The notes below the pieces were generated by a model. It ran no database searches and was not told where the DNA came from. It was given only the letters and a program-made list of their open reading frames with translations. A stretch of DNA of 64,000 bases, from the NCBI GenBank assembly GCA_012511175.1, contig JAAZGO010000010.1, positions 5,563 to 69,562 on the forward strand, given 5' to 3'. The first letter of the stretch is position 1. Each line of letters begins with the position of its first letter. Source of the DNA: Fastidiosipila sp. Its GTDB lineage: Bacteria; Bacillota; Clostridia; Saccharofermentanales; DTU023. The position numbers and the translations under genes are program-made. Positions 181-64,000 of this stretch are shown here, piece after piece.

Positions 181-241
181 ATAGCTGCTTTGCCGGCAGC
201 AGGTTTTTGCGCTATGGTGACAGTTGTGTATATGGGGGCCT

Positions 242-961
242 ATGGAAACAGTCTATCTTCTTGTCGTTATCTTCATCGCCTATCTGGTTCAGTCCGTTAC
301 CGGTTTCGGAGGCGCCCTGCTTTCCTTACCCATTACCATCCTGCTGATCGGTTTCGATAACGCGCGTGTTCTGGCGACTGTGCTTTCGCTATTCACAGGC
401 TTGCTGGTCTCTTTGCGCTGCCGCAAGCAGATCAACCGGGGGAAATTGCTTGAAATCCTGATCGTCATGGCAGTTGGAACAGCGTCCGGCATGCTGCTGG
501 ACCGTGTACTGGAGGTTCCCCTCCTGATCACGGTCTATGGGATCGTTACGGTTATCCTGGCGCTTGCTGGCTTTCTGCCAAGGAAAAGCGCAGCGGGTAA
601 ACCTGGCCGGCCGGTTCTTCTTGGAATTCTTCTGCTGGCGGGGCTTATGCAGGGTCTGTTTGTGGCGGGCGGGGCCTTCCTCATGGTTTATGCCATGTAC
701 GAGTTGCCGGAAAAAACAGAGTTTCGGGCTACCTGCTCAGCTGTCTGGGGAGTTTTGAACTGGTTCATGCTGATCAACTACGGTTTGGCCGGGAAAATCA
801 ATGGCGGAAATCTGAAGCTGGTGGGTCTTTGCGTGCCGGTGGTCCTCCTCATGATGGTACTGGCCGAAAAATTGCAGTCAAAAATCAATCAGCGGCTGTT
901 TTCAAAGTTGACCAATGCCCTGCTTCTGGCAACCGGAGTGATTCTATTGGCTGGCAGGTGA
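242..961 (+). CDS. TSUP-family (TauE/SafE-like) anion permease
   Basis: The ORF is 224-961; the likely ATG is at 242 (METVYLLVVIFIAYLVQSVTGFGGALLSLPI). It has multiple hydrophobic helices and the N-terminal G-F-G-G motif typical of TauE/SafE. It is a paralog of the three genes at 10374-12730. Confidence 0.7.
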   Translation: METVYLLVVIFIAYLVQSVTGFGGALLSLPITILLIGFDNARVLATVLSLFTGLLVSLRCRKQINRGKLLEILIVMAVGTASGMLLDRVLEVPLLITVYGIVTVILALAGFLPRKSAAGKPGRPVLLGILLLAGLMQGLFVAGGAFLMVYAMYELPEKTEFRATCSAVWGVLNWFMLINYGLAGKINGGNLKLVGLCVPVVLLMMVLAEKLQSKINQRLFSKLTNALLLATGVILLAGR

Positions 962-7303: not shown

Positions 7304-7957
7304 ATGAGATATCGCCCCGCGCTCCTGGCAGCCATCCTGTGCGGCGCCCTGCTGACAGGTGTGTTTGCCCTTACCGGATGTCAATCCGCAGGACAGCCTG
7401 CGCCGTCAGCAACGGCACGGCCCCCTGAGACGACAGCGGAGACCCTTGAAGAGATCTTCAGCCGGGAACTTCTTGTAAAAGAGAATGCAAAATCCGAAAC
7501 AGAAATCGAACCTGGGCTGTACAGTCTTACCGCCACCGGGGGAGAGGGCTTCTTTCGGCTGGTAGTTCCCGGCCAGGAGGAAAGTTTGATTAGGGAATTG
7601 CACTTTGAACAGATGGCCTGGGTGGAAGTCAAGGCAGGTGAACTGCTTAAGGTTAAGGGATCCAACCTGGAAACATTTGAAGAACGGGAGCTACTGGGTC
7701 CCTCCTCGTCGCGCCTGAACAACGGGTTTTTCCTGGTGGGAATGGATATTTGCCCGGGGACCCTGGCCGTACAGTCTGTTGGAAGGGTTGGTGAGGATGG
7801 AACTCGGCCTGTCTGCGCAGTATTCGACAACGCACACGATATGTCCCAAGGGCCGGTCCGCAGTTATGATTTTGATTTTTCTCTTATCTATATTGAGGTG
7901 GAGGAAGGCGAGTTTCTCTATCTTCACAATGCGGAGGCTTACGTTCCACCTACCTGA
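7304..7957 (+). CDS. hypothetical lipoprotein
   Basis: There is a signal peptide with a lipobox (LLTGVFALTGC). I recognise no other domain. Confidence 0.5.
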   Translation: MRYRPALLAAILCGALLTGVFALTGCQSAGQPAPSATARPPETTAETLEEIFSRELLVKENAKSETEIEPGLYSLTATGGEGFFRLVVPGQEESLIRELHFEQMAWVEVKAGELLKVKGSNLETFEERELLGPSSSRLNNGFFLVGMDICPGTLAVQSVGRVGEDGTRPVCAVFDNAHDMSQGPVRSYDFDFSLIYIEVEEGEFLYLHNAEAYVPPT

Positions 7958-10373: not shown

Positions 10374-11120
10374 TCAGGCGACCAGCTTGCTGATGCCCCC
10401 GGCAATGGAAATAAGCCCGGCCACAAACTGGATCAGATAAACAAAGCTGGAGAATTTCTCATTGGGTATTCTGTGATGCAGCCAGTTGCCGATAAAGAAG
10501 GCGATGACCACGAGCGGCAGGGCGTAAGCGATGGTTGTCGCAAGTTCTGTCGTGTAGACATGCAGAACAAAAATCCGATAGAGGGTTGAAATGGTGTTGG
10601 TGACGATCCAGACCGCCACCATGGTCGCGCGGAAGGTTCCCTTGTCCTTCATGCGGCTCAGGGCATAGATATTGATAAGCGGCGCTCCCATGGAAAACAT
10701 GCCCTGCAAGACAGCGCCGATTCCAAGCGATACATACATTGCAGGTTTGGGCATTTCCCTGGATTCTTTTTTACGTACGATCCGCAGAATCTCCCGCCCG
10801 CTGACAAAGGCCACCAGGCTGCCAATGATCAGCCGCAATGCCCACTCAACGTAGCGCAGTTTGGCAAAAAGCAGGTAGCCGACCGGCATGATGGGGATGA
10901 TGCAGGCAAGGATGATCAGGAGCTCACGGCCATTGATCTTCTTGAACTGGGTCACCAGCATGATGGCCAGCATGAGGAGGCTGGTCGCGGTGAAGAGAGC
11001 CACTGAGACTTCAGCTCCCCAAAAAAGTGAAAGAATCGGCACGCCGATTGAAATTGAACCGAAACCCGCGATGGCTTCGATGATATTCATGAAAAGAACA
11101 AGGATTAAGTAAAATATCAT
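10374..11120 (-). CDS. TSUP-family (TauE/SafE-like) permease, tandem paralog 1
   Basis: The start is at the ATG at 11120 (MIFYLILVLFMNIIEAIAGFGSISIG). The 422-aa ORF's N-terminal extension overlaps paralog 2 in another frame and looks non-coding. Confidence 0.75.
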   Translation of the reverse strand: MIFYLILVLFMNIIEAIAGFGSISIGVPILSLFWGAEVSVALFTATSLLMLAIMLVTQFKKINGRELLIILACIIPIMPVGYLLFAKLRYVEWALRLIIGSLVAFVSGREILRIVRKKESREMPKPAMYVSLGIGAVLQGMFSMGAPLINIYALSRMKDKGTFRATMVAVWIVTNTISTLYRIFVLHVYTTELATTIAYALPLVVIAFFIGNWLHHRIPNEKFSSFVYLIQFVAGLISIAGGISKLVA

Positions 11121-11164
11121 GACGTTGCTCCTGAGCGATGCTTCCCAAAAGTATACGACATTAT

Positions 11165-11917
11165 TCAGGAAATTCCAGCGAGCAGCAGAACTCCTCCCAG
11201 AATGGAGAATAAACCGCTGATCAGTTGTACGCTGTATACGATGGTGACGAACTTCTCGGCGGGCACCTTGTAATGCAGCTTGTTGCCGAGAAGAAAACCA
11301 ATGATAACCAGGGGGAGTGCGTACAAAATCCAGGTCCAGGTTGATGCAGAATAGGCGCGGAGGAAGAAGATCCGGTAAACCATGGAAAAACTGATGGTCA
11401 TCACCCAGATGGCGGACATGGTCGCTCGGAAGACACTCTTGTCCTTGATCCGGGTCAGTGTGTAGACATTGATCAGGGGACCTCCCATGGAGAACATGGC
11501 CTCCACAATCGATCCCAGGGCAAGCGCTGTATAAACCGCCCAGCGTGGCAGGTCGGAGTCGTCTTTTTTTACCAGCCGCCGCCACAATTCGTGTCCGGCC
11601 ACCAGGGTCACCACCGCGCCCATGACCAGGCGGAGCAGCCATTCAAAGGGCCTGATTTGGCTGTAGAGGGCATAGCCGACGGGCAGGAAAGGAAGGATAC
11701 CGGCTGCGATGATCAGGAATTGGCGCCGGTCCATTTTCCTGATCTGTGTGACAAAGATAACCAGACAAAGGAAAAGTCCGGTGGTTGCCATCAGGTTGAC
11801 CGACAATTCCGTGCCGAGAACAAGTGAAAGGATGGGGATGCCGATCGAAGTGGATCCGAATCCGACAACCGTTTCGAGGATGAGCATGAAAAAAAGGATG
11901 ACAAAGAAATAGGTCAT
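11165..11917 (-). CDS. TSUP-family (TauE/SafE-like) permease, tandem paralog 2
   Basis: 250 aa, MTYFFVILFFMLILETVVGFGSTSIG. It is colinear with paralogs 1 and 3 (shared FSMGGPLINVY and RATM blocks). Confidence 0.8.
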   Translation of the reverse strand: MTYFFVILFFMLILETVVGFGSTSIGIPILSLVLGTELSVNLMATTGLFLCLVIFVTQIRKMDRRQFLIIAAGILPFLPVGYALYSQIRPFEWLLRLVMGAVVTLVAGHELWRRLVKKDDSDLPRWAVYTALALGSIVEAMFSMGGPLINVYTLTRIKDKSVFRATMSAIWVMTISFSMVYRIFFLRAYSASTWTWILYALPLVIIGFLLGNKLHYKVPAEKFVTIVYSVQLISGLFSILGGVLLLAGIS

Positions 11918-11947
11918 GGATCCTCTTGAACCTTGGTGCCTTCTTCC

Positions 11948-12691
11948 TTACATAAGCAGGTTGATGCCGCCGGCGATCGACAAAAGACCGCTGATAAGCT
12001 GAACGATGTAGACAAAATTGGCAAATTTCTCATTGGGGATCCTATGGTGCAGCTTGTTGCCGATAAAAAAGGCGATGAATACGAGGGGGATCGAGTAGAG
12101 TACGTTGGTCCAGATTTGACGCGTATAGGAGTGGAGCACGAACATCCGAAACATGAGTGAGATGGTATTGGTGATCAGCCAGACCATGACCATCGTCGCG
12201 CGGAACATGCTCTTGTCCCTGATCCGGGTCAGGACATAGACATTGATCAGCGCGCCTCCCATGGAGAACATGCCCTGAACTACGGCGCCGACACCAAAAG
12301 CGGAATAAACCAGCCATTGGGGCGGATCTCCGGCATCTTTTCGTATCATGCGCCGCCAGATTTCGCGGGAGGCAACAAAGGTGACAACCAGGCCCATGAT
12401 GAGGCGGAGGGCCCATTCCATGAGGCGAAGCTTGGCGAAGAGGAGATAGCCGATCGGCATGATGGGGATGACGGCGGCAAGAATGATAAGAAGCTCCCGC
12501 AGCTGCACTTTTTTGTACTGGGTGGCAGCGACAACCAGGCATAAGATCAAGCCGGCTGCGGAAAGGAGCGCGACTGATGCCTCCGTGCCGAGAGCCAGGG
12601 ACAGGATGGGGATGCCGATGGATGTCGATCCGAAACCCGTGATGGATTCGAGGATATGCATTAAAAAAAGGACAATAAAAAAATAAACCAC
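11948..12691 (-). CDS. TSUP-family (TauE/SafE-like) permease, tandem paralog 3
   Basis: The ORF is 11948-12730. By alignment with paralogs 1 and 2, the likely start is the GTG at 12689-12691, preceded by GGGGAAGGA (VVYFFIVLFLMHILESITGFGSTSIG). The ATG at 12730 is the alternative. Confidence 0.75.
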   Translation of the reverse strand: MVYFFIVLFLMHILESITGFGSTSIGIPILSLALGTEASVALLSAAGLILCLVVAATQYKKVQLRELLIILAAVIPIMPIGYLLFAKLRLMEWALRLIMGLVVTFVASREIWRRMIRKDAGDPPQWLVYSAFGVGAVVQGMFSMGGALINVYVLTRIRDKSMFRATMVMVWLITNTISLMFRMFVLHSYTRQIWTNVLYSIPLVFIAFFIGNKLHHRIPNEKFANFVYIVQLISGLLSIAGGINLLM

Positions 12692-12900
12692 AACCTGATT
12701 TTCCTTCCCCGCCAAATTATACAGCAGCAAACTGGAGAGGTGAGGTCAGACTGCTTTTGCCCAAGTGAGTCAGCTTGGCGTGTTGTCTGGCACAGTATGC
12801 CGGGACGGGTGAGTTTATTCTGTACAATACAAGTAGACAGGGTTGTCCGGGCAGAGTGAATTCTGTGCCGGACGCGATGAAAAAGCAAAGGAAAGAAGAT

Positions 12901-15258: not shown

Positions 15259-16093
15259 ACCTGACGATTCTGTCATTTGCAGGGTCTGTTGGCGCCATTG
15301 CCGCATCCGGGAAGGCGGACTTGGTTATTGCCGGGCGCGGACCGTTAAGGATGGTGTGGTCATTCCCGCGAATTACGGTCAGTTGACCAGCCTGGCCCTT
15401 GACCCCATTGAGAAGAAGCCGCTCTACTATTTTCACCCGGGCACTTACATTCTTTCTGCCGGCAGCTACGGCTGCAATATGGCCTGTCCTTTTTGCCAGA
15501 ATTATGAGATTGCCCGTGAGGCCGCGGCTGCACGGCGTACGGTGAGGGTCAGTCCGGAGGAACTGGTTGAAAAAGCGCTGGCTTACAGGGATCGCGGCAA
15601 CATTGGCATTGCCTTTACCTACAACGAACCTCTTGTCGGATACGAGTATGTTCGTGACACATCCATGCTTGCCAGGGAAGAGGGCCTTGAAACGGTCGTC
15701 GTCACCAACGGACAGATTGAGGAAGAGCCACTTCAGGAATTGCTTCCGTTCATTACAGCATGGAATATCGATCTGAAAGCTTTTACCGATGAAGGCTACC
15801 GGAAACTTGGCGGCCGCCTGGACGTTACGCTTCGGACCATCAGGCGGGTGTCGGAGGTGTCGCACCTTGAAGTAACCACTCTTGTCGTGCCTGGATTATC
15901 GAACGATGAGGAAGAGATGAGGAGAGAAGCAGCTTTTTTGGCTTCAATCGATCCCCGGATCCCGCTTCATCTGTCGCGCTACTTTCCCTGCTACCAGTAT
16001 GATGCACCCGCAACATCGAAGGAAACGCTGTACAGGCTCCGTGACGTCGCCAAAGAATCACTGGAGCGGGTCAACCTCGGCAATATCCATTAA
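15248..16093 (+). CDS. AmmeMemoRadiSam-system radical SAM enzyme
   Basis: The ATG at 15248 overlaps the AMMECR1 stop. An N-terminal Cys-rich segment (CRVCWRHCRIREGGLGYC) is followed by the radical-SAM CxxxCxxC motif (CNMACPFCQNYE). Confidence 0.8.
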   Translation: MKNEPDDSVICRVCWRHCRIREGGLGYCRARTVKDGVVIPANYGQLTSLALDPIEKKPLYYFHPGTYILSAGSYGCNMACPFCQNYEIAREAAAARRTVRVSPEELVEKALAYRDRGNIGIAFTYNEPLVGYEYVRDTSMLAREEGLETVVVTNGQIEEEPLQELLPFITAWNIDLKAFTDEGYRKLGGRLDVTLRTIRRVSEVSHLEVTTLVVPGLSNDEEEMRREAAFLASIDPRIPLHLSRYFPCYQYDAPATSKETLYRLRDVAKESLERVNLGNIH

Positions 16094-18033
16094 TCGAAAA
16101 CAGGCCTGTCTTCACCCAGTTCCCGCGGGTCAATGGAAACCATTTCAAAGATTTCAAGCGCCTGCTCAATGAGCTCGCGCAGACCCGGGACTCGTTCAGG
16201 ATCGACCGGCAGGGTGATTGCCGGCTGATCCCCGGAAGCCGCTGACCCGGGAGGCAGTTCCAGGCTGATATGAATCAGGCAGGGGGCCCCGGCGACCAGC
16301 CCGGCCAAAGCACGGTCATCTTGCTCCCTCAGGGATAAAGCGATGTAACGGGTCATATCCTGCATCAGGGATTCAAAGGGATAATAATCTTCCTCCCTGG
16401 CGGCAATCAACGGCTGGATCCATGTTTCTTTGTCTTCGGCGGATGCGTGGGGCGCAACCTCCAGGTTGAAGGCAACATGGAACTTGTCAGTTGCCGCATA
16501 ATCGCTCAGCTCGGCCATGAAAAAGCGGTCATTCTGTCTGAGCAGCTGCAGGTAGTCGGGATTGTTGGCATACAGGGGAAGGGTCAGCGACCGCTCACAG
16601 CTTCGCCCGTCTTTTGTTTCAAGGATCAGGTGTGTCTCAGGCAAATGGGGGTAATAGATCTCATTTCCGCCGTAGGGAAGGATGAAAGGATTTTTAAGCC
16701 GCACAAAATCACGTGACTGCCCCTTGCTGGACAGGGTGCGGGGCAGGTCGAGGCCAGGATTATCAGGCGAAAGGACCGAGCGGTAAATTTCGCCTATGAG
16801 GGCAAGATCCTGTTCTGCCGTCAATTCGAACAGAAAAGGCCTGCTTTCCTCGCGCCCAAAGGGTGAAAAATAAGCTCCTGAATAGTAAATTCCTGCCCGT
16901 TTCAAGTTGTCAGCTTCCGGCAGTCTGGTTGAAAAGCCGCCGGCACCCGTCATGACGATTGAAAGCCAGACGGCGTAAGGCAAGGCTGCCGCCAGTGCGG
17001 CAGCAACCAAGGACCGCCAGCGGATTTTGCCCTTGTTGCCGATCAGGTTGAAGACCCAAAGTGAAAGTGAGAAGCCAAGCCCCGTGCCGATTAGGAAGGG
17101 CACGGGAGAAAGGTTGACCGGCGTGAACTCGGAATCCGTCGTCCATACCCGCAGGTAGTGGGCCGCGTAGCCTCCCAGCAGGGACAGGGTGACCACGCCC
17201 ATCCATTGAATCAGCAGGAAGGGCCAATTGGCGGAGCCCCCGCCTGAGCGATAGCCTGCCTGTCTGGCGCGGAACAAAAAGAATGCAAGACAGGCCATGC
17301 CCAGAGTCATCAAGCCCAGGGGCAAGTGATGGTGCGCCAGCCCTCCTGTAAAAATGGCGGGAGAGAAAAGCTGAAATAATACGACCAGCCAGGAAGACGG
17401 TTCTTCCAGGGCCGTCACAAGCGGGTTGATGAAGCCCGGCAAAAACTGACTGGTGGCATCACTGAAAGAAAAAAGCATGAGCGGCCAGATGATGTTGAGC
17501 ATGACGAAGAAACCGACGGCGGTCAGGGTTTTTTCCGTGATCAGGTAACAGACCTCCAGAAGAAAAAAGAAATAGAAGATCCTGATGAGGAGGCCGGCAT
17601 AACTGATCCAAATATCAGCGGGAGAGGCAGTATAGGCATACCACCCGGGATCAGTGCGGGGCAGCAGCCTGGCGAGCATGGTATTCAAGCCCATGATGAC
17701 AAGCGAAGGCCCGGCCAGATGTACCAGGGCACTCAGGTTGAGCCAGGCGAAGAGTTTCGGCCGGTTTGAGGGCAGTGAAAAATAGAAATCCGTCCGATCC
17801 ATCCGGTGGATAAAGCCAAAGAATTGATGGACCAGGACCAGGCTCATGACAATGAGCACGAAGCCGTTAAAAAAATGAGTGGTAAAGGGCCAGAAGCCCC
17901 GTTCCGACAGCAGCGGAAGGGTGGTGAAGATGAAGAGGAAAATCAGAGGCAGGAACCAAAGTGCGGCTGGTTTCCTCCAGACCAGGGAAGCCGTCACTCG
18001 ATTCGCTTTCACTTGCAGGTCAAACATTTTCAT
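16090..18033 (-). CDS. large polytopic membrane protein (ABC-2-type permease-like N-terminal half plus ~270-aa non-membrane C-terminal domain)
   Basis: 647 aa. There are about 10 hydrophobic segments in the first ~370 aa and a hydrophilic tail. It is the last gene of the YtrA-ABC operon. Confidence 0.5.
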   Translation of the reverse strand: MKMFDLQVKANRVTASLVWRKPAALWFLPLIFLFIFTTLPLLSERGFWPFTTHFFNGFVLIVMSLVLVHQFFGFIHRMDRTDFYFSLPSNRPKLFAWLNLSALVHLAGPSLVIMGLNTMLARLLPRTDPGWYAYTASPADIWISYAGLLIRIFYFFFLLEVCYLITEKTLTAVGFFVMLNIIWPLMLFSFSDATSQFLPGFINPLVTALEEPSSWLVVLFQLFSPAIFTGGLAHHHLPLGLMTLGMACLAFFLFRARQAGYRSGGGSANWPFLLIQWMGVVTLSLLGGYAAHYLRVWTTDSEFTPVNLSPVPFLIGTGLGFSLSLWVFNLIGNKGKIRWRSLVAAALAAALPYAVWLSIVMTGAGGFSTRLPEADNLKRAGIYYSGAYFSPFGREESRPFLFELTAEQDLALIGEIYRSVLSPDNPGLDLPRTLSSKGQSRDFVRLKNPFILPYGGNEIYYPHLPETHLILETKDGRSCERSLTLPLYANNPDYLQLLRQNDRFFMAELSDYAATDKFHVAFNLEVAPHASAEDKETWIQPLIAAREEDYYPFESLMQDMTRYIALSLREQDDRALAGLVAGAPCLIHISLELPPGSAASGDQPAITLPVDPERVPGLRELIEQALEIFEMVSIDPRELGEDRPVFD

Positions 18034-18049: not shown

Positions 18050-19165
18050 TTACCAGGGTGTGGCAGCAGGTGCCATACATAGGCAAACCAGGCCGGTCAT
18101 CAGGGCAAAGAACGTAAGTCCTCCCAGAATAGGAAGGATTTCTTTCGCGATCTTTGTTTTTCGCAGCTGCTTGCCGCTGACGACGGTGGACACGACCTGT
18201 CCCAGCAGGGCTCCCGCGACGAGGCCCATGTAAAAGACAGGTGAACGCAAAGTGCTTTGTTCTCCGGCAAACAGGCCATGGACGAAACTGCCGAGCAGGG
18301 TTCCCCCCAACAAGACAAAGAAGGGTTGCAGGACAGGGTACCATGGAAGCTGCCCGTTTCGAACGCCGGCGTATTCAGCGGGCCTTTTTTTGTAAAAAAA
18401 CCAGGCCATGATGCTCCAGAAAACAATCATGACCAGGGATTGCCAGGCTGAAACAGGGAGTAAGATGGGGATAAAGAGGCGGGCAGCTGGGGCCAGGAGC
18501 CAAAGAATGTCCGTTTCCAGATCGGTAAGCCGGTTGGTCATCCCCAGTATATGAAAGACAGAGGAGGCCCAGGCGAATTGAATACCCACGCAAGTGAGAA
18601 CGGCATCAAAGAGGGTGCCTGACAAGGCCAGGAAAACGAGGCTGAAGGCAAGCAGTTCCAGCGTTGCAGCGAAAAGTCTCAAATAGGCTGTCGAATAGGT
18701 GAAAAAATGTGCTATCTTCCCCCAGCCCGCGAAGACGGCAAAGGTCACTGCGGCGTTGACGGCAAAAATGAAGCAGAAGGCTGCCAGGAGCGCCAGTGCC
18801 CTGCCGAGAAACTGGCGGTTACTTCCCAAGGGCATGCTGGATTCCCTGTCGACCGCATTTTGAAGATAAAAGGTCCTAAATCCGGCACTGGCCAGCACAG
18901 CAACTGCCACAAGAGAGATCAGGGCCAGGAGTAAATGAAGCGGCCAGAGCACCTGATTAAGATTCTGCTCCCTGAAGACAGGCTCAAGGAAATTGTAAGA
19001 CGAAACCAGTGTCAGGTAGTTGTCCCTGCCGATGATAAGAAGCGCAATGGGCATGGCCAGTAAAAACAGGAATGAGAAGAGCAGCATCAGCGAACGCATC
19101 CGCTGGAAGGACTTGCCAAAAACCCAGCCAAGTCCCGGGGCGGTTTGAGTGATTGCCGTCATCAT
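18050..19165 (-). CDS. polytopic membrane protein, putative ABC-2-type permease component
   Basis: 371 aa and highly hydrophobic. The RBS is AAGGGGGAA. It lies directly downstream of the ABC ATPase. Confidence 0.5.
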   Translation of the reverse strand: MMTAITQTAPGLGWVFGKSFQRMRSLMLLFSFLFLLAMPIALLIIGRDNYLTLVSSYNFLEPVFREQNLNQVLWPLHLLLALISLVAVAVLASAGFRTFYLQNAVDRESSMPLGSNRQFLGRALALLAAFCFIFAVNAAVTFAVFAGWGKIAHFFTYSTAYLRLFAATLELLAFSLVFLALSGTLFDAVLTCVGIQFAWASSVFHILGMTNRLTDLETDILWLLAPAARLFIPILLPVSAWQSLVMIVFWSIMAWFFYKKRPAEYAGVRNGQLPWYPVLQPFFVLLGGTLLGSFVHGLFAGEQSTLRSPVFYMGLVAGALLGQVVSTVVSGKQLRKTKIAKEILPILGGLTFFALMTGLVCLCMAPAATPW

Positions 19166-46244: not shown

Positions 46245-46290
46245 ATAATGAGAATGATGAGACAATGAAAGCGTCAGGGAGGTGGCGGTC

Positions 46291-46824
46291 ATGCAGGACA
46301 TTCTTCTAGTGGTTGATATGCAAAACGATTTTGTAGACGGTTCCCTCGGGACACCGGAGGCCAGGTCAATTGTCTCCAATGTGGTCAAAAAAATGAAAAA
46401 GTTCGATGGTCCGGTTCTTTTCACCAAGGATACACACCAGGCAGACTACCTGGAAACTCAGGAAGGCCGGCTGCTCCCCGTGGAGCATTGCATCCGCGGA
46501 ACCGAGGGATGGGAAATTGTCGGGGAAGTTGCTCAAGCACGTCAAGGGAAGGTGATCGAGAAAGATACCTTTGGCGCCCGGGATCTCCCCTCCACGCTGA
46601 TGGAAATGAATGAGGAGGAGCCTATCCGGTCCATCACCCTGGTTGGCCTTTGTACCGACATCTGCGTCATTTCAAACGCCATGCTGATCAAGGCATTCTT
46701 ACCGGAGGTCGAAATCAAGGTGGACGCCAGCTGCTGTGCAGGCGTCACGCCGGAAAGTCACAAAATTGCCCTGGAAGCCATGAAAGTCTGCCAGGTCAGT
46801 GTGACTGGCGAACCGCAGGGCTAG
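46291..46824 (+). CDS. cysteine hydrolase / isochorismatase-family protein (nicotinamidase-like)
   Basis: MQDILLVVDMQNDFV...LVGLCTDICV shows the D-K-C catalytic triad context of the isochorismatase superfamily. Confidence 0.75.
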   Translation: MQDILLVVDMQNDFVDGSLGTPEARSIVSNVVKKMKKFDGPVLFTKDTHQADYLETQEGRLLPVEHCIRGTEGWEIVGEVAQARQGKVIEKDTFGARDLPSTLMEMNEEEPIRSITLVGLCTDICVISNAMLIKAFLPEVEIKVDASCCAGVTPESHKIALEAMKVCQVSVTGEPQG

Positions 46825-47180
46825 CCGCCCGGCTTAAGTTTGTCGTAGTCCCCTTGCCGGTAACCGACAAGCACCTGATCCTCGAAAATGAAAACCGGCC
46901 GCTTAACCAGCATGCCGTCTGAGGCAAGGATCTCGATCATTTCTTGATCCGTCATCAGGGGAAGCTTATCTTTCAGCTTCAGCTCACGGTATTTCATGCC
47001 GCTGGTATTGAAAAAGGCCTTAACCCCCTTGCCGCTTTTGGCAATCCAGCCGGTCAGTTCCTCTCCGGTCGGCCTGTCTTTTTGAATATCGCGGAAGGTG
47101 TAGGGAATGTCATGTTCATCAAGGAAACTCCTTGCTTTACGGCAGGTCCCTCATTTGGGATAGCAGAGAAACAGATTCAT
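46821..47180 (-). CDS. ArsC/Spx-family thioredoxin-fold protein, predicted selenoprotein (in-frame UGA at codon 10, UxxC motif)
   Basis: The gene is not in the ORF track because TGA at 47151-47153 splits it. Read-through translation gives MNLFLCYPK-U-GTCRKARSFLDEHDIPYTFRDIQKDRPTGEELTGWIAKSGKGVKAFFNTSGMKYRELKLKDKLPLMTDQEMIEILASDGMLVKRPVFIFEDQVLVGYRQGDYDKLKPGG*. This is colinear with the ArsC/Spx/YffB family along its full length (CxxCRKA, FFNTSG, YREL, DGMLxKRP, VGY). The ATG overlaps the upstream stop (ATGA) and follows GGAAAGGAG. selC and selB are in the same window. Confidence 0.8.
47120..47134 (-). promoter_or_regulatory. candidate bacterial SECIS hairpin
   Basis: CAAGGA-gtt-TCCTTG is a perfect 6-bp stem starting 16 nt after the UGA. 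The G-first apical loop begins about 22 nt downstream, inside the usual bSECIS window. Confidence 0.4.
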
Positions 47181-48664
47181 GGAAAACTCCTTTCCGTGTG
47201 TTCAATTTTTACGAGTGAGCGCGCTCTTTCATAGTCCTCCGGTGTATCAAGATCAAAACCGGCTGAATGATCATGGCTGATGACTTCGATCACCGCATCT
47301 TCATGGTCCTGAATCACCTGCCTCCCGCCAAGATCACCTGCAAGTGACGACAGCTCCCGGTAGAAGCTGCGGTCAAAGAGCACAGGTGAGGACCGCCTGC
47401 CCTCCCTTACCGGAATCATGATTTTCCCTGTCTCAAATTCCTCCATCAGGTGCCGCAGCAGGAGAGGGGAAAGAAAAGGCTGATCCCCCGGTACATAAAA
47501 ACAGGCCGTGCTTTCAGGGGCCAGGTGCTGCGTCCCGACAGCCACCGATCTGCCCTGGCCTTCGCAATATCTGTCATTGGTGACAAAAGTCAGATTTGTC
47601 CCGCCTTTCAGCGGCCTGATCGCCGTTTCAATGGTTTCACGGACCCGTTGAGATTCAAAACCCGTGACAACCACAAGATCGGGGATACCGGCTGAGAGCA
47701 CCCGGCTCAAGGTCCGGGCGATGACGGTTTGGCCTCCCAGGGGCAGGAGCAGCTTGTTGAGTCCGCCCATCCGCTCTGACATGCCGGCAGCCATGATGAC
47801 CGCAGAGAAGGGTGCGGGCTGCCCGCTGTTTTTGGATTGCCCCCAATAGGTCTTATGCTCTCCCCGATCCAGGCCTTTGAAAAAGACAGCACTGATCCGG
47901 CTGTTTTCAAGTACCCGCCCCGCCAGTTCATGGAAGAACCCTTGGGTCCTCTGCTCTTTGTCCAGGCAATCCGCCTGGTTGAAAACGACAGCAATTTTGC
48001 TGGTTGGCGGGATGCCCTTGAAAAAATGACCGGAGTTCAAGAGCGAAAGAAGATTGGAAATTTGGATGGGTTTCCCGGCTTCAAGGCCGGTGGCCGCAGA
48101 GAAGAGGGGAGCGCGGTGGACCACCGGTTCGGCCAGGGCTTGCCCGATGGCGGAAAGACCGAAGAGTATCAGGGTCAGATCAGTGGTTTTAGGTATGACC
48201 GGTTCGTGTTCCGCGTGGGCCTTAAGCGGTTTTCTCTTTGAGCCGTCAGCTTCACAAAGGATGAGGGTGTCCTTGTCACCTGCCTCTCTCTGTTCCCGCA
48301 CCCAGGCATCCAGTTGATCCCTGTCAAGTCCGCGGTGCTTGCCGGCGATATCCTCACAGGCGGGGCCCAGCCAGAGGCCGGATCCGGCAGGAGGCGCGGC
48401 CGTAACACGGGCCAGGGCCGGATTCTTCTTTTGCTTGTGTGAAAGGGGCGGCGCGACTTCCCTGCCTGCCCCGGGGAGGCCTAAGGCGGTGGTTGAGGTC
48501 AGGATGGAGCGGGGCCGTATTGCGGCATCAAAAAGCTCGACCAGGGTGGTCGTCTTGCCGCCCCCGCCGATGGCGCTAACCAGGAAAGGCCGCGGATCGA
48601 GTTGCGCATCCTGCCTGATCAGCGAGCGGACATAGGCCTCGATCGTCAGATTGGCTGCGGTCAT
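47177..48664 (-). CDS. yqeC: fusion of YqeC-type selenium-dependent hydroxylase accessory protein (N-terminal) with MocA/YgfJ-type molybdenum cofactor cytidylyltransferase (C-terminal)
   Basis: The ATG at 48664 follows AAGGAG; the longer ORF to 48844 overlaps yqeB. The N-terminal half has VSAIGGGGKTTTLVELF...ILTSTTA (YqeC P-loop). The C-terminal half has FSAVIMAAGMSERMGGLNKLLLPLGGQTVI...YVPGDQPFL (MobA-like NTP transferase). Confidence 0.75.
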   Translation of the reverse strand: MTAANLTIEAYVRSLIRQDAQLDPRPFLVSAIGGGGKTTTLVELFDAAIRPRSILTSTTALGLPGAGREVAPPLSHKQKKNPALARVTAAPPAGSGLWLGPACEDIAGKHRGLDRDQLDAWVREQREAGDKDTLILCEADGSKRKPLKAHAEHEPVIPKTTDLTLILFGLSAIGQALAEPVVHRAPLFSAATGLEAGKPIQISNLLSLLNSGHFFKGIPPTSKIAVVFNQADCLDKEQRTQGFFHELAGRVLENSRISAVFFKGLDRGEHKTYWGQSKNSGQPAPFSAVIMAAGMSERMGGLNKLLLPLGGQTVIARTLSRVLSAGIPDLVVVTGFESQRVRETIETAIRPLKGGTNLTFVTNDRYCEGQGRSVAVGTQHLAPESTACFYVPGDQPFLSPLLLRHLMEEFETGKIMIPVREGRRSSPVLFDRSFYRELSSLAGDLGGRQVIQDHEDAVIEVISHDHSAGFDLDTPEDYERARSLVKIEHTERSFP

Positions 48665-48701: not shown

Positions 48702-49493
48702 CTATTCCCCAAAATGCGCCAGGATGGCCTCCAGCACACCGCCCGCGATGGTGCGGCCCTTGTCGCTGATGGTCCGGGTGTAGTCGGCATCCCCGCGCGG
48801 GTCGACATCGCCCAGTTTCTGTCCTCTTCTAACCTGGAAGCCATCCGCGATCAGGCCGCGGACGACACCTGAAATGACGGTTTTGACCGGCACCTCGCCA
48901 ACCATCAAAATGACATCGCCTGCAACGACCTGGTCGCCGATTTCGTGGAGATTGCGTGTGACACCCTCCCGGGGGGCTCTCAGGACGCGATCCTTGTCGA
49001 CGCCCTCAATGTTGCCCGGGATTCCGGTGTTGGCAAGGGCTTGCCCCTGATGGACCAGGCGGCCCAGATAATGCCCGCGTTTGGTTTCGATCACCACGTG
49101 GGCTTGCTTTCCCGCTTCGATGCCGGGACCCAGGCCGATGACCAGGGGAGCCCAGGAGAGATCGTAGTCGGGTGTTCGCTTGCTAAGAGTAGCGTCAATG
49201 AAAACGTCCGGTTTCAAAAAATCCCGGACTTGCCGGTCGGGGAGGGTGAGAACGGGGATTAATCCGTCCCGGATGGCGGGTTCGATTTCTTCCAGTGAGC
49301 GGATGTGGCGCGAGGTCACGCCCTCAATTGTCCAGTCACCCTCATAGATGGCGTTGCAATAGGAAACGGTCCGCCGGACACAGGAAGGCGAGGGGAGGTC
49401 GCAGACGACCACGCGGAATCCCGATTGGCGGAGTTTGTGAATAACGGCAGAGGCTAAATCGCCGCCTCCCCGGATAAGGATGGTGTGTTTCAT
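48702..49493 (-). CDS. yqeB: YqeB/EF2563-family selenium-dependent molybdenum hydroxylase system protein
   Basis: 263 aa. MKHTILIRGGGDLASAVIHKLRQSGFRVVVCDLPSPSCVRRTVSYCNAIYEG matches the short Firmicutes form of YqeB. The RBS is AAGGAG. Confidence 0.75.
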   Translation of the reverse strand: MKHTILIRGGGDLASAVIHKLRQSGFRVVVCDLPSPSCVRRTVSYCNAIYEGDWTIEGVTSRHIRSLEEIEPAIRDGLIPVLTLPDRQVRDFLKPDVFIDATLSKRTPDYDLSWAPLVIGLGPGIEAGKQAHVVIETKRGHYLGRLVHQGQALANTGIPGNIEGVDKDRVLRAPREGVTRNLHEIGDQVVAGDVILMVGEVPVKTVISGVVRGLIADGFQVRRGQKLGDVDPRGDADYTRTISDKGRTIAGGVLEAILAHFGE

Positions 49494-49529: not shown

Positions 49530-50720
49530 TCAGTCGGCAAGGCTGTCAAAGTATCCCTGGATCAAAACGACAGGCGTTCCCTTGTCTCCGCTTCCCGATG
49601 TCAGGTCTGCCAGCGAGCCGAGCAGGTCGGTCAACCGGCGCGGGGTGGTGCCTCCGGCATTGGTCTCAAAGTCCAGATCCTCTTCTTTGTCGGCAATTGC
49701 CTGGCGCACAGCCTCTTCAAGCTCCTGGCCCGAGAGGTCGGCAAATTTGCTGTCAGTCAGATATTTCAATTTCAATTCCCTGGGCTTGCCGCCAAGGCCA
49801 TCTGTAAAGGCAGGAGAAACAACAGGGTCGGCCAGTTCCCAGATCTTGCAGACGGGATCTTTGAAAGCGCCGTCGCCGTAAATCATCACTTCAATGTGCT
49901 TCCCTGTCCTTTCCAGGAAGAGACCGGAAAGGGTGTTGACAAACAGTTTGCCGGATCGCGGAAAAAGTTTCACGATTTCTTCGCTGGCCTTGTTGCTGCC
50001 GAGTAATCCAAATTCCTCATGGAAACCGCTTCCGTCAACAGACTGAGTCAAGATGTCATCCAGGCCCAGAACCCGTTTGGCCCCGGCACGCCGCAAGAGC
50101 CGTTTGGTTCTTTCTCTTGCGTGGACGTCACAGACAAGGGTGAAGGGGGTGTAGCGGAGGACAACCAGCGGGTCATTGGCCAGGATGATCTCAGCTTCGC
50201 AGCCCTCGCTCCGGATGGTTTCGCGATAGAAATCAACGTAATCAACGCCGGTGAAGGTGTGGCGGTTCACACCGAAGAGTTTGCGGTAACGCATTTCGGA
50301 AAGGCAGTCCTTCAGCGGATCAATCCCCTTTTCATCCATCTGGTCCAGATCCATCAGGCTGTTGCCGACCTCATCGGAGGGATAGCTGAGCTGCAGCACA
50401 ATTTTTTTTGCGCCACGGGCAATCCCGCGCAGATTAACCGCAAAACGGTTTCTGCTCAGGATGGGAAAAACAAGGCCGATTTCGCCTTCAGGAAATTTCC
50501 TTCTGATGTCTTTGGCGATGTCATCGCAGCTGGCGTAATTGTTCTCGGCCCGGGCCACAACTGACTCCGTTACTGCAACCACATCCCTGTCGTGCAAATC
50601 GAATCCTTCGTCACGGGCGGCGAGTAAAACGCTGTCAAGAATGATTTCCGCCAGCTTATCGCCGCTCTTGATAATGGGGGTCCGGATTCCTCTCGAAGTT
50701 GTTCCTGTGCGTCTGATCAT
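49530..50720 (-). CDS. CofE-like (F420-0:gamma-glutamyl ligase family, COG1478) protein, long Firmicutes form
   Basis: The ATG at 50720 gives MIRRTGTTSRGIRTPIIKSGDKLAEIILDSV...HDRDVVAVTESVVARAE. This is the CofE-type N-terminal pattern (xIPxIKxGDDLAxxI...DGDIxVVxxKIVSKAEG). Confidence 0.6.
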   Translation of the reverse strand: MIRRTGTTSRGIRTPIIKSGDKLAEIILDSVLLAARDEGFDLHDRDVVAVTESVVARAENNYASCDDIAKDIRRKFPEGEIGLVFPILSRNRFAVNLRGIARGAKKIVLQLSYPSDEVGNSLMDLDQMDEKGIDPLKDCLSEMRYRKLFGVNRHTFTGVDYVDFYRETIRSEGCEAEIILANDPLVVLRYTPFTLVCDVHARERTKRLLRRAGAKRVLGLDDILTQSVDGSGFHEEFGLLGSNKASEEIVKLFPRSGKLFVNTLSGLFLERTGKHIEVMIYGDGAFKDPVCKIWELADPVVSPAFTDGLGGKPRELKLKYLTDSKFADLSGQELEEAVRQAIADKEEDLDFETNAGGTTPRRLTDLLGSLADLTSGSGDKGTPVVLIQGYFDSLAD

Positions 50721-50830
50721 GGTCTGGGCGGAATAAACCGCCTCTCCTTTCAGCGAGCCCGTCGGGGCATGCGGCCTCCTGTAATCTTCCCGCCGGGGGA
50801 GCCGCTCCCGCCGAGTCAATCGGAAAGCGG

Positions 50831-50878
50831 AAAAATACGCGCCAACCCTGTTGGCCAACGGCTGGAGGGCCGGCGCGT
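50831..50878 (-). terminator. probable terminator downstream of selC
   Basis: On the minus strand, ACGCGCC...GCCAAC-agg-GTTGGC-GCGT is followed by ATTTTT (nested stems 50836-50842/50872-50878 and 50841-50855). Confidence 0.5.
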
Positions 50879-50884
50879 TTCAAC

Positions 50885-50981
50885 TGGCGGAAGCATGTGA
50901 GAATCGAACTCACCCGGGAGGCTCCTAACCCCCCTCAACGGTTTTGAAGACCGCGGGGCACACCAGAACCCATCTGCCTCC
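50885..50981 (-). tRNA. selC: tRNA-Sec (anticodon UCA)
   Basis: The 97-nt minus-strand sequence is GGAGGCAGATGGGTTCTGGTGTGCCCCGCGGTCTTCAAAACCGTTGAGGGGGGTTAGGAGCCTCCCGGGTGAGTTCGATTCTCACATGCTTCCGCCA. The acceptor is GGAGGCA/TGCTTCC (7 bp plus a G-A) and the anticodon stem-loop is GCGGT-CTTCAAA-ACCGT. There is a long variable arm (GGGGGG-ttaggag-CCTCCC), a T arm GTGAG-TTCGATT-CTCAC, a discriminator G and an encoded CCA. Overall it is very similar in layout to E. coli selC. Confidence 0.9.
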
Positions 50982-51043
50982 ATGCAGTATTGTCATGGTT
51001 GCCAGGTGATTTGTCAACTTTGAGAAGAGGAGGATTGCGTGGG

Positions 51044-56635: not shown

Positions 56636-58153
56636 ATGTCCGACAATAGTGGAGCCCGCCCAGGTTTGGCGGAAGTGGAGGGATGCGCTTTGAAACGCAC
56701 AGTTGTCTTAATCCTGATCCTGGCTGCAGTCCTGGTTTTGACGCTGTCGTGCGGTTCTCAGTCTATTGACGTCAGGGAGCTGGCCATGGTCCGGGTCACC
56801 GGGGCCGACGGTTTCGCCAGCCTTTTTGCCGGGACAGACAAGGCACGGATCGATTTCTGGCTTGAGCAGGAATCGGCCAGACTTGAAGAGTCTGATGAGA
56901 AAGGTTTTCAGCGCCTTTTCCAACGTGAGGCGGTACTCAGTTCACTGGTCTTTACTCCCGATAAAAGGGCCGGTTTGAAAAACGGGGATGAAGTGCTCAT
57001 CCGCATCGATTATGACCGTCAGCTGGCAAAAGAGGCGGGCCTTCGTTTCCGGAATGTCAGGTTCAAGTACAAGGTTGAAGGCCTCGAGGAAGCGGTTCCC
57101 ATTCCCATCGAGCAAGGTGTGGACCTTGCCTTTTCGGGCTACGATGGGCAGGGTCGCTGCTCCCAGGTATTGTCAGGCGATGTCGACCGATTCAGGCAGG
57201 GTTTCGAATTTGTCTTCACCCAGGGCAGCGCGAATCTGTCAAATGGCGATTGGGTTGAACTCAAGGTGATTCCCGATAACCTGTTCCTGACTTCCAAGGG
57301 AAGGATTGCGCGCGAAACCACGTTATCGTTTGAGGTGAAGGGGCTTCCGCCCATGACCGAGATTGATCTTTTTGAAGACCTGGTTTTAATCTTTGACGGC
57401 GTCAGTGACCAGGGGATTCTCTCTTTTGACACCACCCGATTGCCGGCTGACTGGGTGGAGGGCGGCCCTCAGGAGGAAACGCCCGTCCGTTTCACCGCCG
57501 TTCCGTCCAGGGGCCTTTCGAACGGAGAACTTGTCAGGGTCGAAGCCATGGTTGACGCGGGCTGGTTTGCCGAACGTGGCCTGAAAGTTGAAGCCACGAC
57601 CAGGGAGTACCGGGTCAGCGGACTGAAGGAATACCCCCGGAACCTGGATGGCGTGGATCTGATGCCTTTGTTCAAAAAAATTGCACCCTGGCTTGAAAAG
57701 GATATGACCAGCCGGCTGGATATGAATTACTGGAATGATGATTTCAAAACAGGAGAGCCGGTCAGCAGCTGGGATTACGACCATCTGACCGGCGTGACGC
57801 GCATCTTCTACGGTTACAACCAGGCCAACCGTGCCCGCAACTTCGTTGCGATTCTTTACAAAACAGCGGTGAGCGGTGTCTGTCTGGATACGGTTCCTTA
57901 CCAGTCTTTTTATGAAAGGGGAGACCAGGTAGAATCGACGCTTTATCTCCTCTATCTGATTGATGAAATCATGTACGATCGCCCTGATGTGGAAGATTTT
58001 CGGGAAATTAAACTGGTTATGCACGGTGATGCTGAACTTGATGTAATCACTGAATTCAAAAATCGCTACGGCGGGGATCATGTACTGATTGTTGATGTTG
58101 CGGTTCCGGATCAGGTGGTCAGCGGTGACGCGGTTTCCCTGCCGACTCCCTGA
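56636..58153 (+). CDS. hypothetical secreted protein / lipoprotein
   Basis: 505 aa. A TM/signal segment ends in LTLSCGSQ, a possible lipobox. I recognise no domain. Confidence 0.45.
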   Translation: MSDNSGARPGLAEVEGCALKRTVVLILILAAVLVLTLSCGSQSIDVRELAMVRVTGADGFASLFAGTDKARIDFWLEQESARLEESDEKGFQRLFQREAVLSSLVFTPDKRAGLKNGDEVLIRIDYDRQLAKEAGLRFRNVRFKYKVEGLEEAVPIPIEQGVDLAFSGYDGQGRCSQVLSGDVDRFRQGFEFVFTQGSANLSNGDWVELKVIPDNLFLTSKGRIARETTLSFEVKGLPPMTEIDLFEDLVLIFDGVSDQGILSFDTTRLPADWVEGGPQEETPVRFTAVPSRGLSNGELVRVEAMVDAGWFAERGLKVEATTREYRVSGLKEYPRNLDGVDLMPLFKKIAPWLEKDMTSRLDMNYWNDDFKTGEPVSSWDYDHLTGVTRIFYGYNQANRARNFVAILYKTAVSGVCLDTVPYQSFYERGDQVESTLYLLYLIDEIMYDRPDVEDFREIKLVMHGDAELDVITEFKNRYGGDHVLIVDVAVPDQVVSGDAVSLPTP

Positions 58154-63818: not shown

Positions 63819-64000
63819 CTAGGTGAAGAACACGCGAACCTCACCTGTCAGGCGGGTGCGTTTCTGTTTGTCAAAGTACTCAAGAAGTGCCATGGCGAAT
63901 TTGCGGGAACTTTCAAGCTCGTCGCGAAATTCTGCCAGCGTAATCTGTCCCTCTTTTTCAATGGCGGCACGGACGATCTCCCATGCCTGATCCACCTTTT
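63819..64000 (-). CDS. selB: selenocysteine-specific elongation factor SelB, C-terminal fragment (5' end outside window)
   Basis: The minus-strand frame is open from the window edge to TAG at 63819-63821. The translation is KVDQAWEIVRAAIEKEGQITLAEFRDELESSRKFAMALLEYFDKQKRTRLTGEVRVFFT*. The FRD..(x)SRK[FY]A.ALLEYFD...T.R pattern is the last winged-helix (SECIS-binding) domain of SelB. Confidence 0.65.
   Translation of the reverse strand, partial: KVDQAWEIVRAAIEKEGQITLAEFRDELESSRKFAMALLEYFDKQKRTRLTGEVRVFFT

Follow-up and report, generated by a model that had tools for sequence, protein, structure and literature searches.

The window analyzed here, a stretch of 64,000 nucleotides (nt) of Fastidiosipila sp. 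DNA (GenBank assembly GCA_012511175.1, contig JAAZGO010000010.1, positions 5,563 to 69,562), carries on its minus strand a coding sequence (46821..47180) that is interrupted by TGA at its tenth codon and that we propose to encode an ArsC/Spx-family (YusI-like) selenoprotein. An initial annotation, made from the sequence alone, had described at this locus a frame that stays open for 109 codons beyond the TGA. Translation confirmed this: from 47180 to 46821, the minus strand reads ATG, eight codons, TGA (47153-47151), 109 sense codons, and TAG (46823-46821). The gene starts with ATG AAT CTG TTT CTC TGC TAT CCC AAA TGA GGG ACC TGC CGT AAA GCA, and the read-through translation of 47180..46821 is MNLFLCYPK, the TGA, GTCRKARSFLDEHDIPYTFRDIQKDRPTGEELTGWIAKSGKGVKAFFNTSGMKYRELKLKDKLPLMTDQEMIEILASDGMLVKRPVFIFEDQVLVGYRQGDYDKLKPGG, and the final stop, where the residues after the TGA begin GTCRKARSFLDEHDIPY and the C-terminal end is KLKPGG. 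With selenocysteine (Sec, U) at the proposed Sec codon (47151..47153, minus strand), the product would have 119 residues and the motif U10-G-T-C13. The ATG (47180-47178) and the stop codon of the upstream gene (TGA, 47179-47177; the upstream open reading frame, ORF, ends at 47177) overlap as ATGA, and the Shine-Dalgarno-like sequence GGAAAGGAG (47187..47195, minus strand) lies 6 nt upstream of the ATG; the initial annotation was correct on both points. GAAAGG(A/G)G-like motifs also precede the ATG in the related loci L001-L003 and L081.

As had been claimed, the minus strand holds no ORF of at least 60 amino acids (aa) between 46824 and 47177. The sole minus-strand ORF there is one of 58 aa (46821-46997), and the plus-strand ORF previously listed as antisense to the gene (46944-47234) is present and 96 aa long. 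The expectation that gene callers would miss the gene held on two public contigs with no call at the locus (L122, L123). The expected alternative, truncation to nine codons, did not hold: the calls found were instead a 58-aa C-terminal fragment (L121) and, in a relative with an ATG right behind the TGA, a 106-aa product. The window gene has no in-frame start codon between the TGA and Met62, and thus no alternative product would retain the fold.

The codon aligned to position 10 was located in 80 genome loci. It was TGA in four (L001-L004) and TGC or TGT in the other 76, so every locus carried either TGA or a Cys codon in this column. The four loci are the closest relatives (74-82% identity) and come from metagenome-assembled genomes (MAGs) labelled Mageeibacillus sp. 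or Clostridiaceae. The protein P0004 (106 aa), which begins MTCRKAR directly behind the U column, proved to be another TGA form: its DNA reads TAT CCC AAG TGA ATG ACC TGC, and the gene call had begun at the ATG behind the stop. When metagenome contigs were scanned with a codon-degenerate pattern, 10 further full-length TGA forms were found, giving 11 metagenomic TGA loci together with L081. The complete set of TGA-column loci comprises L001-L004, L081, L084, L086, L088, L092/94, L108, L110/112, L115, and L116. About 15 distinct orthologs have TGA at codon 10, down to 67% identity, and none contains frameshifts or extra stops. These results support the earlier statement that the TGA falls on the first Cys of the CxxC motif. 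In a neighbour-joining tree, the main-clade TGA forms made up a monophyletic group whose sister was the syntenic Cys form L005, and the distant TGA form L084 (UTTC) was independent, nested among Cys forms.

The L084 gene (756-1100, plus strand; YPK-U-TTC) adjoins HD/HDOD and Cache-domain genes. A separate ArsC-like lineage, made up of L097 (883-1200, plus strand), L103 (minus strand), and L096, also has TGA at the first Cys, within WWPK-U-TTCRKAR. The proteins of the L097/L103 lineage score just below the cutoff of NCBIfam model TIGR01617 (66-68 vs. 75) and far below that of NF041106, and the lineage is a putative further Sec family that is not modelled. Cys-form homologs with 53-61% identity were present in archaeal MAGs of Methanobrevibacter (L009, L014, L015, and about 35 other loci). 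They are as close to the clostridial protein as most bacterial homologs are, which hints at a possible inter-domain transfer in gut and rumen habitats.

Selection on the frame was estimated by the Nei-Gojobori method for codons 22-115 of the window gene and four orthologs (L001-L004). Between the window and the orthologs, synonymous divergence (dS) was 0.97-1.36 and the ratio of nonsynonymous to synonymous divergence (dN/dS) was 0.10-0.18; over all pairs, dN/dS was 0.10-0.20. Codons 2-9 also change mostly synonymously among the orthologs. Since these codons and the downstream part are both conserved as protein, the sequence is translated on both sides of the UGA. The downstream frame, whose degradation in relatives the initial annotation had named as a sign against a selenoprotein, was intact. 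The 360-nt gene, including the TGA, was 100% identical in three independent metagenome assemblies, which excludes an assembly error. A recoded genome using TGA as a sense codon was considered and rejected, as yqeC-ygfJ, tuf, addA, and addB end in TGA.

The region behind the UGA contains a hairpin resembling a selenocysteine insertion sequence (SECIS) (47120..47134, minus strand). It starts 16 nt past the UGA and consists of a 6-bp stem, CAAGGA/UCCUUG (47134-47129 and 47125-47120), and a GUU loop (47128-47126). In 12 distinct main-clade orthologs the hairpin is invariant apart from its middle loop base (G or U; loop G(G/U)U), and in the RNAalifold consensus the 6-bp hairpin is retained as the only structure kept in every main-clade sequence. 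It lies in a segment of about 33 nt after the UGA in which synonymous sites are frozen (codons 11-21, 47119..47150, minus strand). Here, 8 of 10 degenerate columns with a conserved residue used a single codon in all 12 sequences, as compared with 5 of 63 such columns in the rest of the gene (Fisher p=3.7e-6), which is near synonymous saturation across these sequences. This pattern of codon use points to a constraint on the RNA itself across codons 11-21. The peptide encoded by the hairpin region reads KARRFL in the Sec clade vs. KARKWL in the family consensus, which suggests that peptide and RNA structure may have co-evolved. A possible extended lower stem (47104..47150, minus strand), formed by GGGA (47150-47147) and UCCC (47107-47104) in the RNAalifold consensus, would enclose the hairpin and can usually form, but the evidence for it is weak; the aligned orthologs showed one-sided G-C to G-U changes and no compensatory changes, and the pairing is broken in the AUG variant (L081/L108).

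Counted from the U of UGA, the hairpin loop occupies positions +26 to +28, as compared with +23/+24 for the loop G and U of the E. coli fdhF SECIS. Both the position and the G-containing loop match the descriptions of bacterial SECIS elements (PMC9312934, PMC2398784), and the hairpin fits the role of a bacterial SECIS candidate. In L103 and L097, a hairpin of 7-8 bp with another sequence occupies the equivalent position relative to the UGA. At the standard position in L084, the post-UGA hairpin is weak (-1.2 kcal/mol), and the SECIS of this form, if there is any, is predicted to differ from that of the main clade. Many Cys forms, among them L010, L012, L013, and L014, contain a 5-6 bp hairpin, GCCAG...CUGGC, which is formed by A-R/K-x-W-L codons at the SECIS-like position; as a pre-adaptation, such a hairpin may have made repeated changes from Cys to Sec easier in the family.

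Genes of the Sec machinery were found in the same genome. The gene for tRNA-Sec, selC (50885..50981, minus strand), heads the cluster to which the selenoprotein gene belongs; it has the anticodon UCA and was identified by ARAGORN and by Rfam RF01852 (70.8 bits). In seven related loci, too, a tRNA-Sec gene precedes the ortholog. At the right edge of the window lies the 3' end of selB, coding for the last winged-helix domain (63819..64000, minus strand; the gene continues beyond the window), and the last 59 codons of this edge ORF (63998-63819, minus strand) matched SelB-wing_3 (PF09107) at 1.6e-19. The initial annotation had placed both selC and the end of selB in the window, and it had suggested a check for selA. 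Three contigs (L118-L120) carry identical AddB and show 100% identity with the window over 13.4 kb. On them, selA (487-499 aa) and selB, which codes for 632 aa, are located directly upstream of addB, so that selA is adjacent, just outside the window. The genes selC, selB, and selA all lie within about 20 kb. Upstream of selA is a gap of 765 bp in which only a transposase-like remnant was found. In L118 (5349-6592), the long gap there contains a 159-aa ORF and flanking frame resembling part of a transposase, and selD is absent from it. A scan of the 64-kb window for other selenoprotein genes with which the SECIS could be compared gave nothing convincing.

Profile and phmmer searches were run with the product in which U had been replaced by C. 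The protein scored 67.7 bits with Pfam ArsC PF03960 (gathering threshold 24; residues 7-114) and 112.4 bits with TIGR01617 (arsC_related, the Spx/MgsR-related subfamily; cutoff 75.05), a model on which its relatives scored similarly (L001, 104; L084, 108.4; the Cys form P0001, 112.9). In the PDB, the closest solved relatives were 3gkx, 2m46, and 3fz4 (E=2e-35 to 2e-26), all matched at full length; the match to 3gkx (E=2e-35) runs across residues 2-116 and spans the TGA. The PDB matches to Spx, YffB, and R773 ArsC were far weaker than that to 3gkx. The homology to ArsC/Spx proteins along the whole length, as first claimed, therefore crosses the TGA in PF03960, TIGR01617, and 3gkx alike. Among 5.8 billion proteins, there were thousands of homologs of about 115 aa with at most 65% identity, and essentially all of them had YPKC(G/S/T)TC. 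In alignments with the two proteins, U10 fell on the catalytic Cys12 of R773 ArsC, and U10/C13 fell on C10/C13 of the Spx redox switch (residues 8-117, 27% identity). The Spx alignment stops two residues short of the C-terminus of the selenoprotein, and Spx runs 16 residues further. The FFNTSG motif is invariant; at the position of Gly52, 11 of the 12 clade members have Pro, and the protein contains an RP(V/I/L) motif.

Several specific assignments were tried and rejected. With the three models of canonical Spx (NF002459, NF009885, and NF009210), the protein scored 54.5, 42.2, and 36.5 bits against cutoffs of 123, 152, and 159, respectively; the protein also lacks the C-terminal extension of Spx, and its clade does not conserve Gly52. 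The score with TIGR00014, which represents glutaredoxin-coupled arsenate reductases, was 42.1 bits (cutoff 106). In the arsenate reductase triad Arg60/Arg94/Arg107 (R773 numbering), Arg94 alone is present, position 60 being the Asn within FFNTSG and Arg107 having no counterpart, and profile scans of the window ORFs revealed no ars operon genes near the selenoprotein gene. The YffB-type reductase model NF008107 (52.9 bits, cutoff 121) and the curated ArsC family (seleno)protein model NF041106 (25.6 bits, cutoff 85) failed as well, and L001, L084, L097, and L103 are likewise below the NF041106 cutoff. On these profile and motif comparisons, the predicted protein is a thioredoxin-fold member of the ArsC/Spx superfamily and not an arsenate reductase or a canonical Spx.

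On the minus strand, the gene order is a promoter-like site, tRNA-Sec, a CofE-like gene, yqeB, yqeC-ygfJ, and the selenoprotein gene. The promoter-like site (50989..51017) is of the sigma-70 type, with TTGACA, a 17-nt spacer, and GACAAT (10/12 matches), and is a consensus match only. The CofE-like gene (49530..50858, 442 aa) has an F420_ligase domain (PF01996, F420-0:gamma-glutamyl ligase, 2.8e-50). Among relatives whose contigs reach that far, it was also located between tRNA-Sec and yqeB in L001, L002, L004, L005, L092, L094, L108, and L112, and it may be an unrecognized component of the selenium-cofactor cluster. A terminator-like hairpin with a T-run (50840-50860, minus strand) directly follows tRNA-Sec and overlaps the start of the CofE-like gene at 50858; tRNA-Sec may be a separate transcription unit, or the CofE-like start may be miscalled. 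The yqeB gene for selenium-dependent molybdenum cofactor biosynthesis (48702..49493, minus strand) scored 321.6 bits with TIGR03309 (cutoff 220). The yqeC-ygfJ (MocA-like) fusion (47177..48664, minus strand; 495 aa) scored 127 bits with TIGR03172 (cutoff 73) and matched PF19842 and PF12804; the 495-aa public calls start at the ATG at 48664, and the longest-ORF version is 555 aa. YqeB, YqeC, and YgfJ have been proposed to assist selenium-dependent molybdenum hydroxylases as accessory proteins (PMC2276186, PMC9312934). As judged from the arrangement of the two genes, the putative selenoprotein gene is translationally coupled to yqeC-ygfJ.

Every Sec-form locus whose flanks are long enough shows this gene order, and so does the Cys form L005. 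In the L004/L115/L088 subclade, three inserted genes, namely yedE, a tusA-like gene, and one for DUF3343, separate yqeC-ygfJ from the Sec gene (L004 4228-5956) and make up a compact selenium island. L004 has a putative selenium transporter of the YedE family (TIGR04112, 468 bits, cutoff 200), a 68-aa TusA/SirA-like gene (PF01206), and an 89-aa DUF3343 Se_S_carrier gene (PF11823), all three of which belong to types described as selenium-metabolism candidates by Lin et al. 2015 (PMC5322559). None of tRNA-Sec, selA, yedE, tusA-like, DUF3343, yqeB, and yqeC was found beside the 75 other Cys-form loci. The neighbourhood suggests a link of the protein to selenium handling.

Some other features of the window were also noted. 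A convergent isochorismatase-family gene (46282-46824, plus strand) has its stop codon in common with the selenoprotein gene through the palindrome CTAG (46821-46824); this tail-to-tail overlap of 3-4 nt leaves no room for a terminator, and relatives have a short gap instead. The window contains four genes for TauE/SafE-family (sulfite exporter-like) membrane proteins, at 224-961 (plus strand) and 10374-12730 (minus strand), three of which are in tandem (public calls of 248, 250, and 247 aa). Four ORFs had no Pfam match: 56636-58153 (plus strand, 505 aa), 16090-18033 (minus strand, 647 aa), 18050-19165 (minus strand, 371 aa), and 7304-7957 (plus strand, 217 aa). They were called as genes on public contigs where checked, and the first of them had no NCBIfam match either.

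Taken together, we put at about 88% the probability that 46821..47180 is a genuine unannotated gene in which the UGA at codon 10 is decoded as Sec in place of the first Cys of CxxC. On the comparative evidence, the UGA would be read by Sec-tRNA(Sec) delivered by SelB, and SelB would be recruited by the stem-loop within the coding sequence 16 nt past the UGA (CAAGGA/UCCUUG, loop G(G/U)U). Since U10 takes the place of the catalytic Cys12 in R773 ArsC and of the switch residue Cys10 in Spx, knowledge of the family suggests that its selenolate would act as the reactive nucleophile or sensor, which C13 would resolve as a selenenylsulfide. The weakest step of the proposal concerns the role of the protein, which most likely acts as a redox partner or as a redox-responsive factor in connection with selenium handling. 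This role is suggested by the co-orientation and coupling with yqeB and yqeC-ygfJ behind tRNA-Sec and, in a sister subclade, by the adjacency of yedE, tusA, and DUF3343.

Several observations weigh against this reading. With respect to the hairpin, the energy is small (-6.2 kcal/mol) and no better than that of alternative synonymous codings of the peptide, 20% of which fold equally well or better (20-44% being the full range), and the 81-nt fold is unexceptional in comparison with shuffles (z=-0.54). We therefore dropped stability as an argument and relied on the conservation of synonymous sites. The stem is invariant across the 12 orthologs and so shows no covariation, and a permissive Rfam search of the post-UGA region gave no match. 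Restriction of the hairpin to Sec forms holds partly only, as several Cys forms fold a weaker hairpin at the same place through GCC-AGA...TGG-CTG; minimum free energy differed between Sec and Cys forms with p=4e-4, a value obtained with mutually related sequences, several of the Cys forms folding likewise. As for the machinery, neither the large ORFs scanned in the window nor about 6-10 kb on each side of it contained selD; the presence of yqeB, yqeC, selA, and selB predicts that the genome has it. The association with selenium genes is confined to one clade of related Clostridia, and this clade-restricted neighbourhood could be inherited gene order without functional meaning. Finally, we know of no member of the exact subfamily with a demonstrated biochemical activity.

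The main alternative concerns the function of the protein rather than its decoding, namely a redox-sensing transcription factor of the YusI/OseR type with Sec in place of the sensing Cys. C. difficile OseR, which is of this type, behaves as an O2-responsive repressor (PMC11481553). The possibility deserves to be kept in mind, although we consider it doubtful. TIGR01617 represents the Spx/MgsR-related subfamily, the alignment with Spx puts U10/C13 on its switch cysteines and ends before the Spx extension, and Pro at the Gly52 position together with RP(V/I/L) are features reported for clostridial members of the YusI subfamily. Membership in that subfamily is, however, a candidate assignment based on these motif features, and the models of canonical Spx fail (54.5 vs. 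123 bits with the best of them). Moreover, the genetic evidence for regulation concerns one YusI-type protein only, and the coupling to yqeC-ygfJ and the adjacency of yedE, tusA, and DUF3343 suit a component of the pathway at least equally well.

An extension of this alternative, which we regard as unlikely, is a Sec-containing YusI/OseR-type redox regulator that senses selenium status within a selenium-utilization island. If this were true, the full-length regulator would be made only when selenium is available, as codon 10 needs Sec-tRNA(Sec), and the protein would combine a redox switch (an Se-S bond with C13) with a selenium sensor that controls neighbouring genes for the selenium cofactor, Sec, or selenium transport. 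To our knowledge, bacterial selenoproteins are regarded as enzymes or redox carriers, and a Sec-dependent transcription factor would be a functional class undescribed among them.

With regard to decoding, the UGA might also be passed without Sec, either by near-cognate insertion of Trp or Cys or by termination and reinitiation, the RNA element then stimulating read-through or regulating translation. The modest and thermodynamically unexceptional hairpin and the failure to locate selD in the window and flanks would suit such a mechanism, and the ATG right after the TGA in L081/L108 would permit reinitiation. Nevertheless, we find the mechanism quite improbable. The UGA coincides exactly with the redox Cys, which all Cys-form homologs retain; selC, selA, and selB are in the same genome, with selC heading the cluster; and the position and loop of the hairpin are those of bacterial SECIS elements. 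Reinitiation would, in addition, cost the N-terminal half of the fold in 11 of 12 distinct main-clade sequences, which have no start until Met62.

It is very improbable that the protein is a true glutaredoxin-coupled arsenate reductase with a catalytic Sec. The Pfam ArsC match, the alignment of U10 with Cys12 of R773 ArsC, and the label 'arsenate reductase' used in earlier surveys (PMC2398784) would favour this, but the TIGR00014 score, the single arginine of the triad, and the lack of nearby ars genes argue against it. Least credible of all is a pseudogene, i.e. a Cys-form gene with a TGC-to-TGA nonsense mutation whose downstream frame has not yet decayed: TGC and TGA are one base apart and gene callers see a non-coding region or a fragment, but the TGA is kept in about 15 distinct orthologs that are not copies of one recent sequence (dS about 1, dN/dS 0.10-0.20, down to 67% identity), the nine codons before it are conserved as protein, and the RNA behind it is constrained.

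The proposed selenoprotein gene has practical consequences. A real gene is dropped or cut to 58 aa by automated annotation on identical contigs, and since NF041106 does not cover the clade, such an error is probable in all genomes of this group of anaerobic-digester Clostridia. The Cys form L005 and the Sec clade make a syntenic pair that should help in tracing the joint evolution of a Cys codon and a coding-region hairpin towards a UGA/SECIS combination. The position of the gene makes its product a testable candidate for a redox component or regulator of a poorly understood pathway of selenium cofactors or selenium trafficking.

The protein can be compared with several known systems. Structurally, its nearest relatives 3gkx (a putative ArsC-family related protein), 2m46, and 3fz4 are uncharacterized structural-genomics targets; they have the common motif YP-C-x-T-C-x-K-A, with Cys where the window protein has Sec. 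B. subtilis Spx (PDB 1z3e, 3gfk) was matched at E=4e-11, and its redox-switch Cys pair corresponds to U10/C13, but Spx has a 15-residue C-terminal extension that is absent from the selenoprotein, as well as Gly52, which is not conserved in the clade. With the YusI/OseR subfamily, the protein has in common a length of about 115-120 aa, an N-terminal CxxC-type motif, RP(I/V/L), the lack of a conserved Gly52 and of an extra C-terminal helix, and an occurrence typical of Clostridia. OseR itself, however, has CxxV and Cys, not Sec, and its regulatory role was shown genetically only (PMC11481553). NF041106 (ArsC_rel_Se_1) covers Sec-containing ArsC relatives of the same superfamily, but the present protein is below its cutoff, and the position of the clade outside this model may explain the absent annotation.

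The closest parallel is provided by the ArsC-like selenoproteins, which have been catalogued since 2006 (PMC1794560) and in later work (PMC2398784, PMC9312934), so that the family is not new, as the initial annotation had recognized; a survey of 2008 described UxxC forms, placed in the Spx-like CDD model cd03032, under the name 'Arsenate reductase 2' (PMC2398784). The surveyed UxxC proteins have the same fold, Sec at the first Cys, a TGA/Cys pair, and a stem-loop behind the UGA. They come mainly from Deltaproteobacteria and marine metagenomes, whereas the present clade consists of anaerobic-digester Clostridia with Mageeibacillus/Saccharofermentanales labels. Placement beside tRNA-Sec, yqeB, and yqeC-ygfJ is not described in the three surveys (PMC1794560, PMC2398784, PMC9312934), with which the locus was compared by description only. 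By comparative criteria, the predicted protein is thus a new and well-supported member of the catalogued ArsC-like selenoproteins, and specific to its clade are the anaerobic-digester Clostridia as hosts, the selC/yqeB/yqeC-ygfJ cluster with or without yedE, tusA, and DUF3343, and the fact that it is missed by gene callers and by NF041106.

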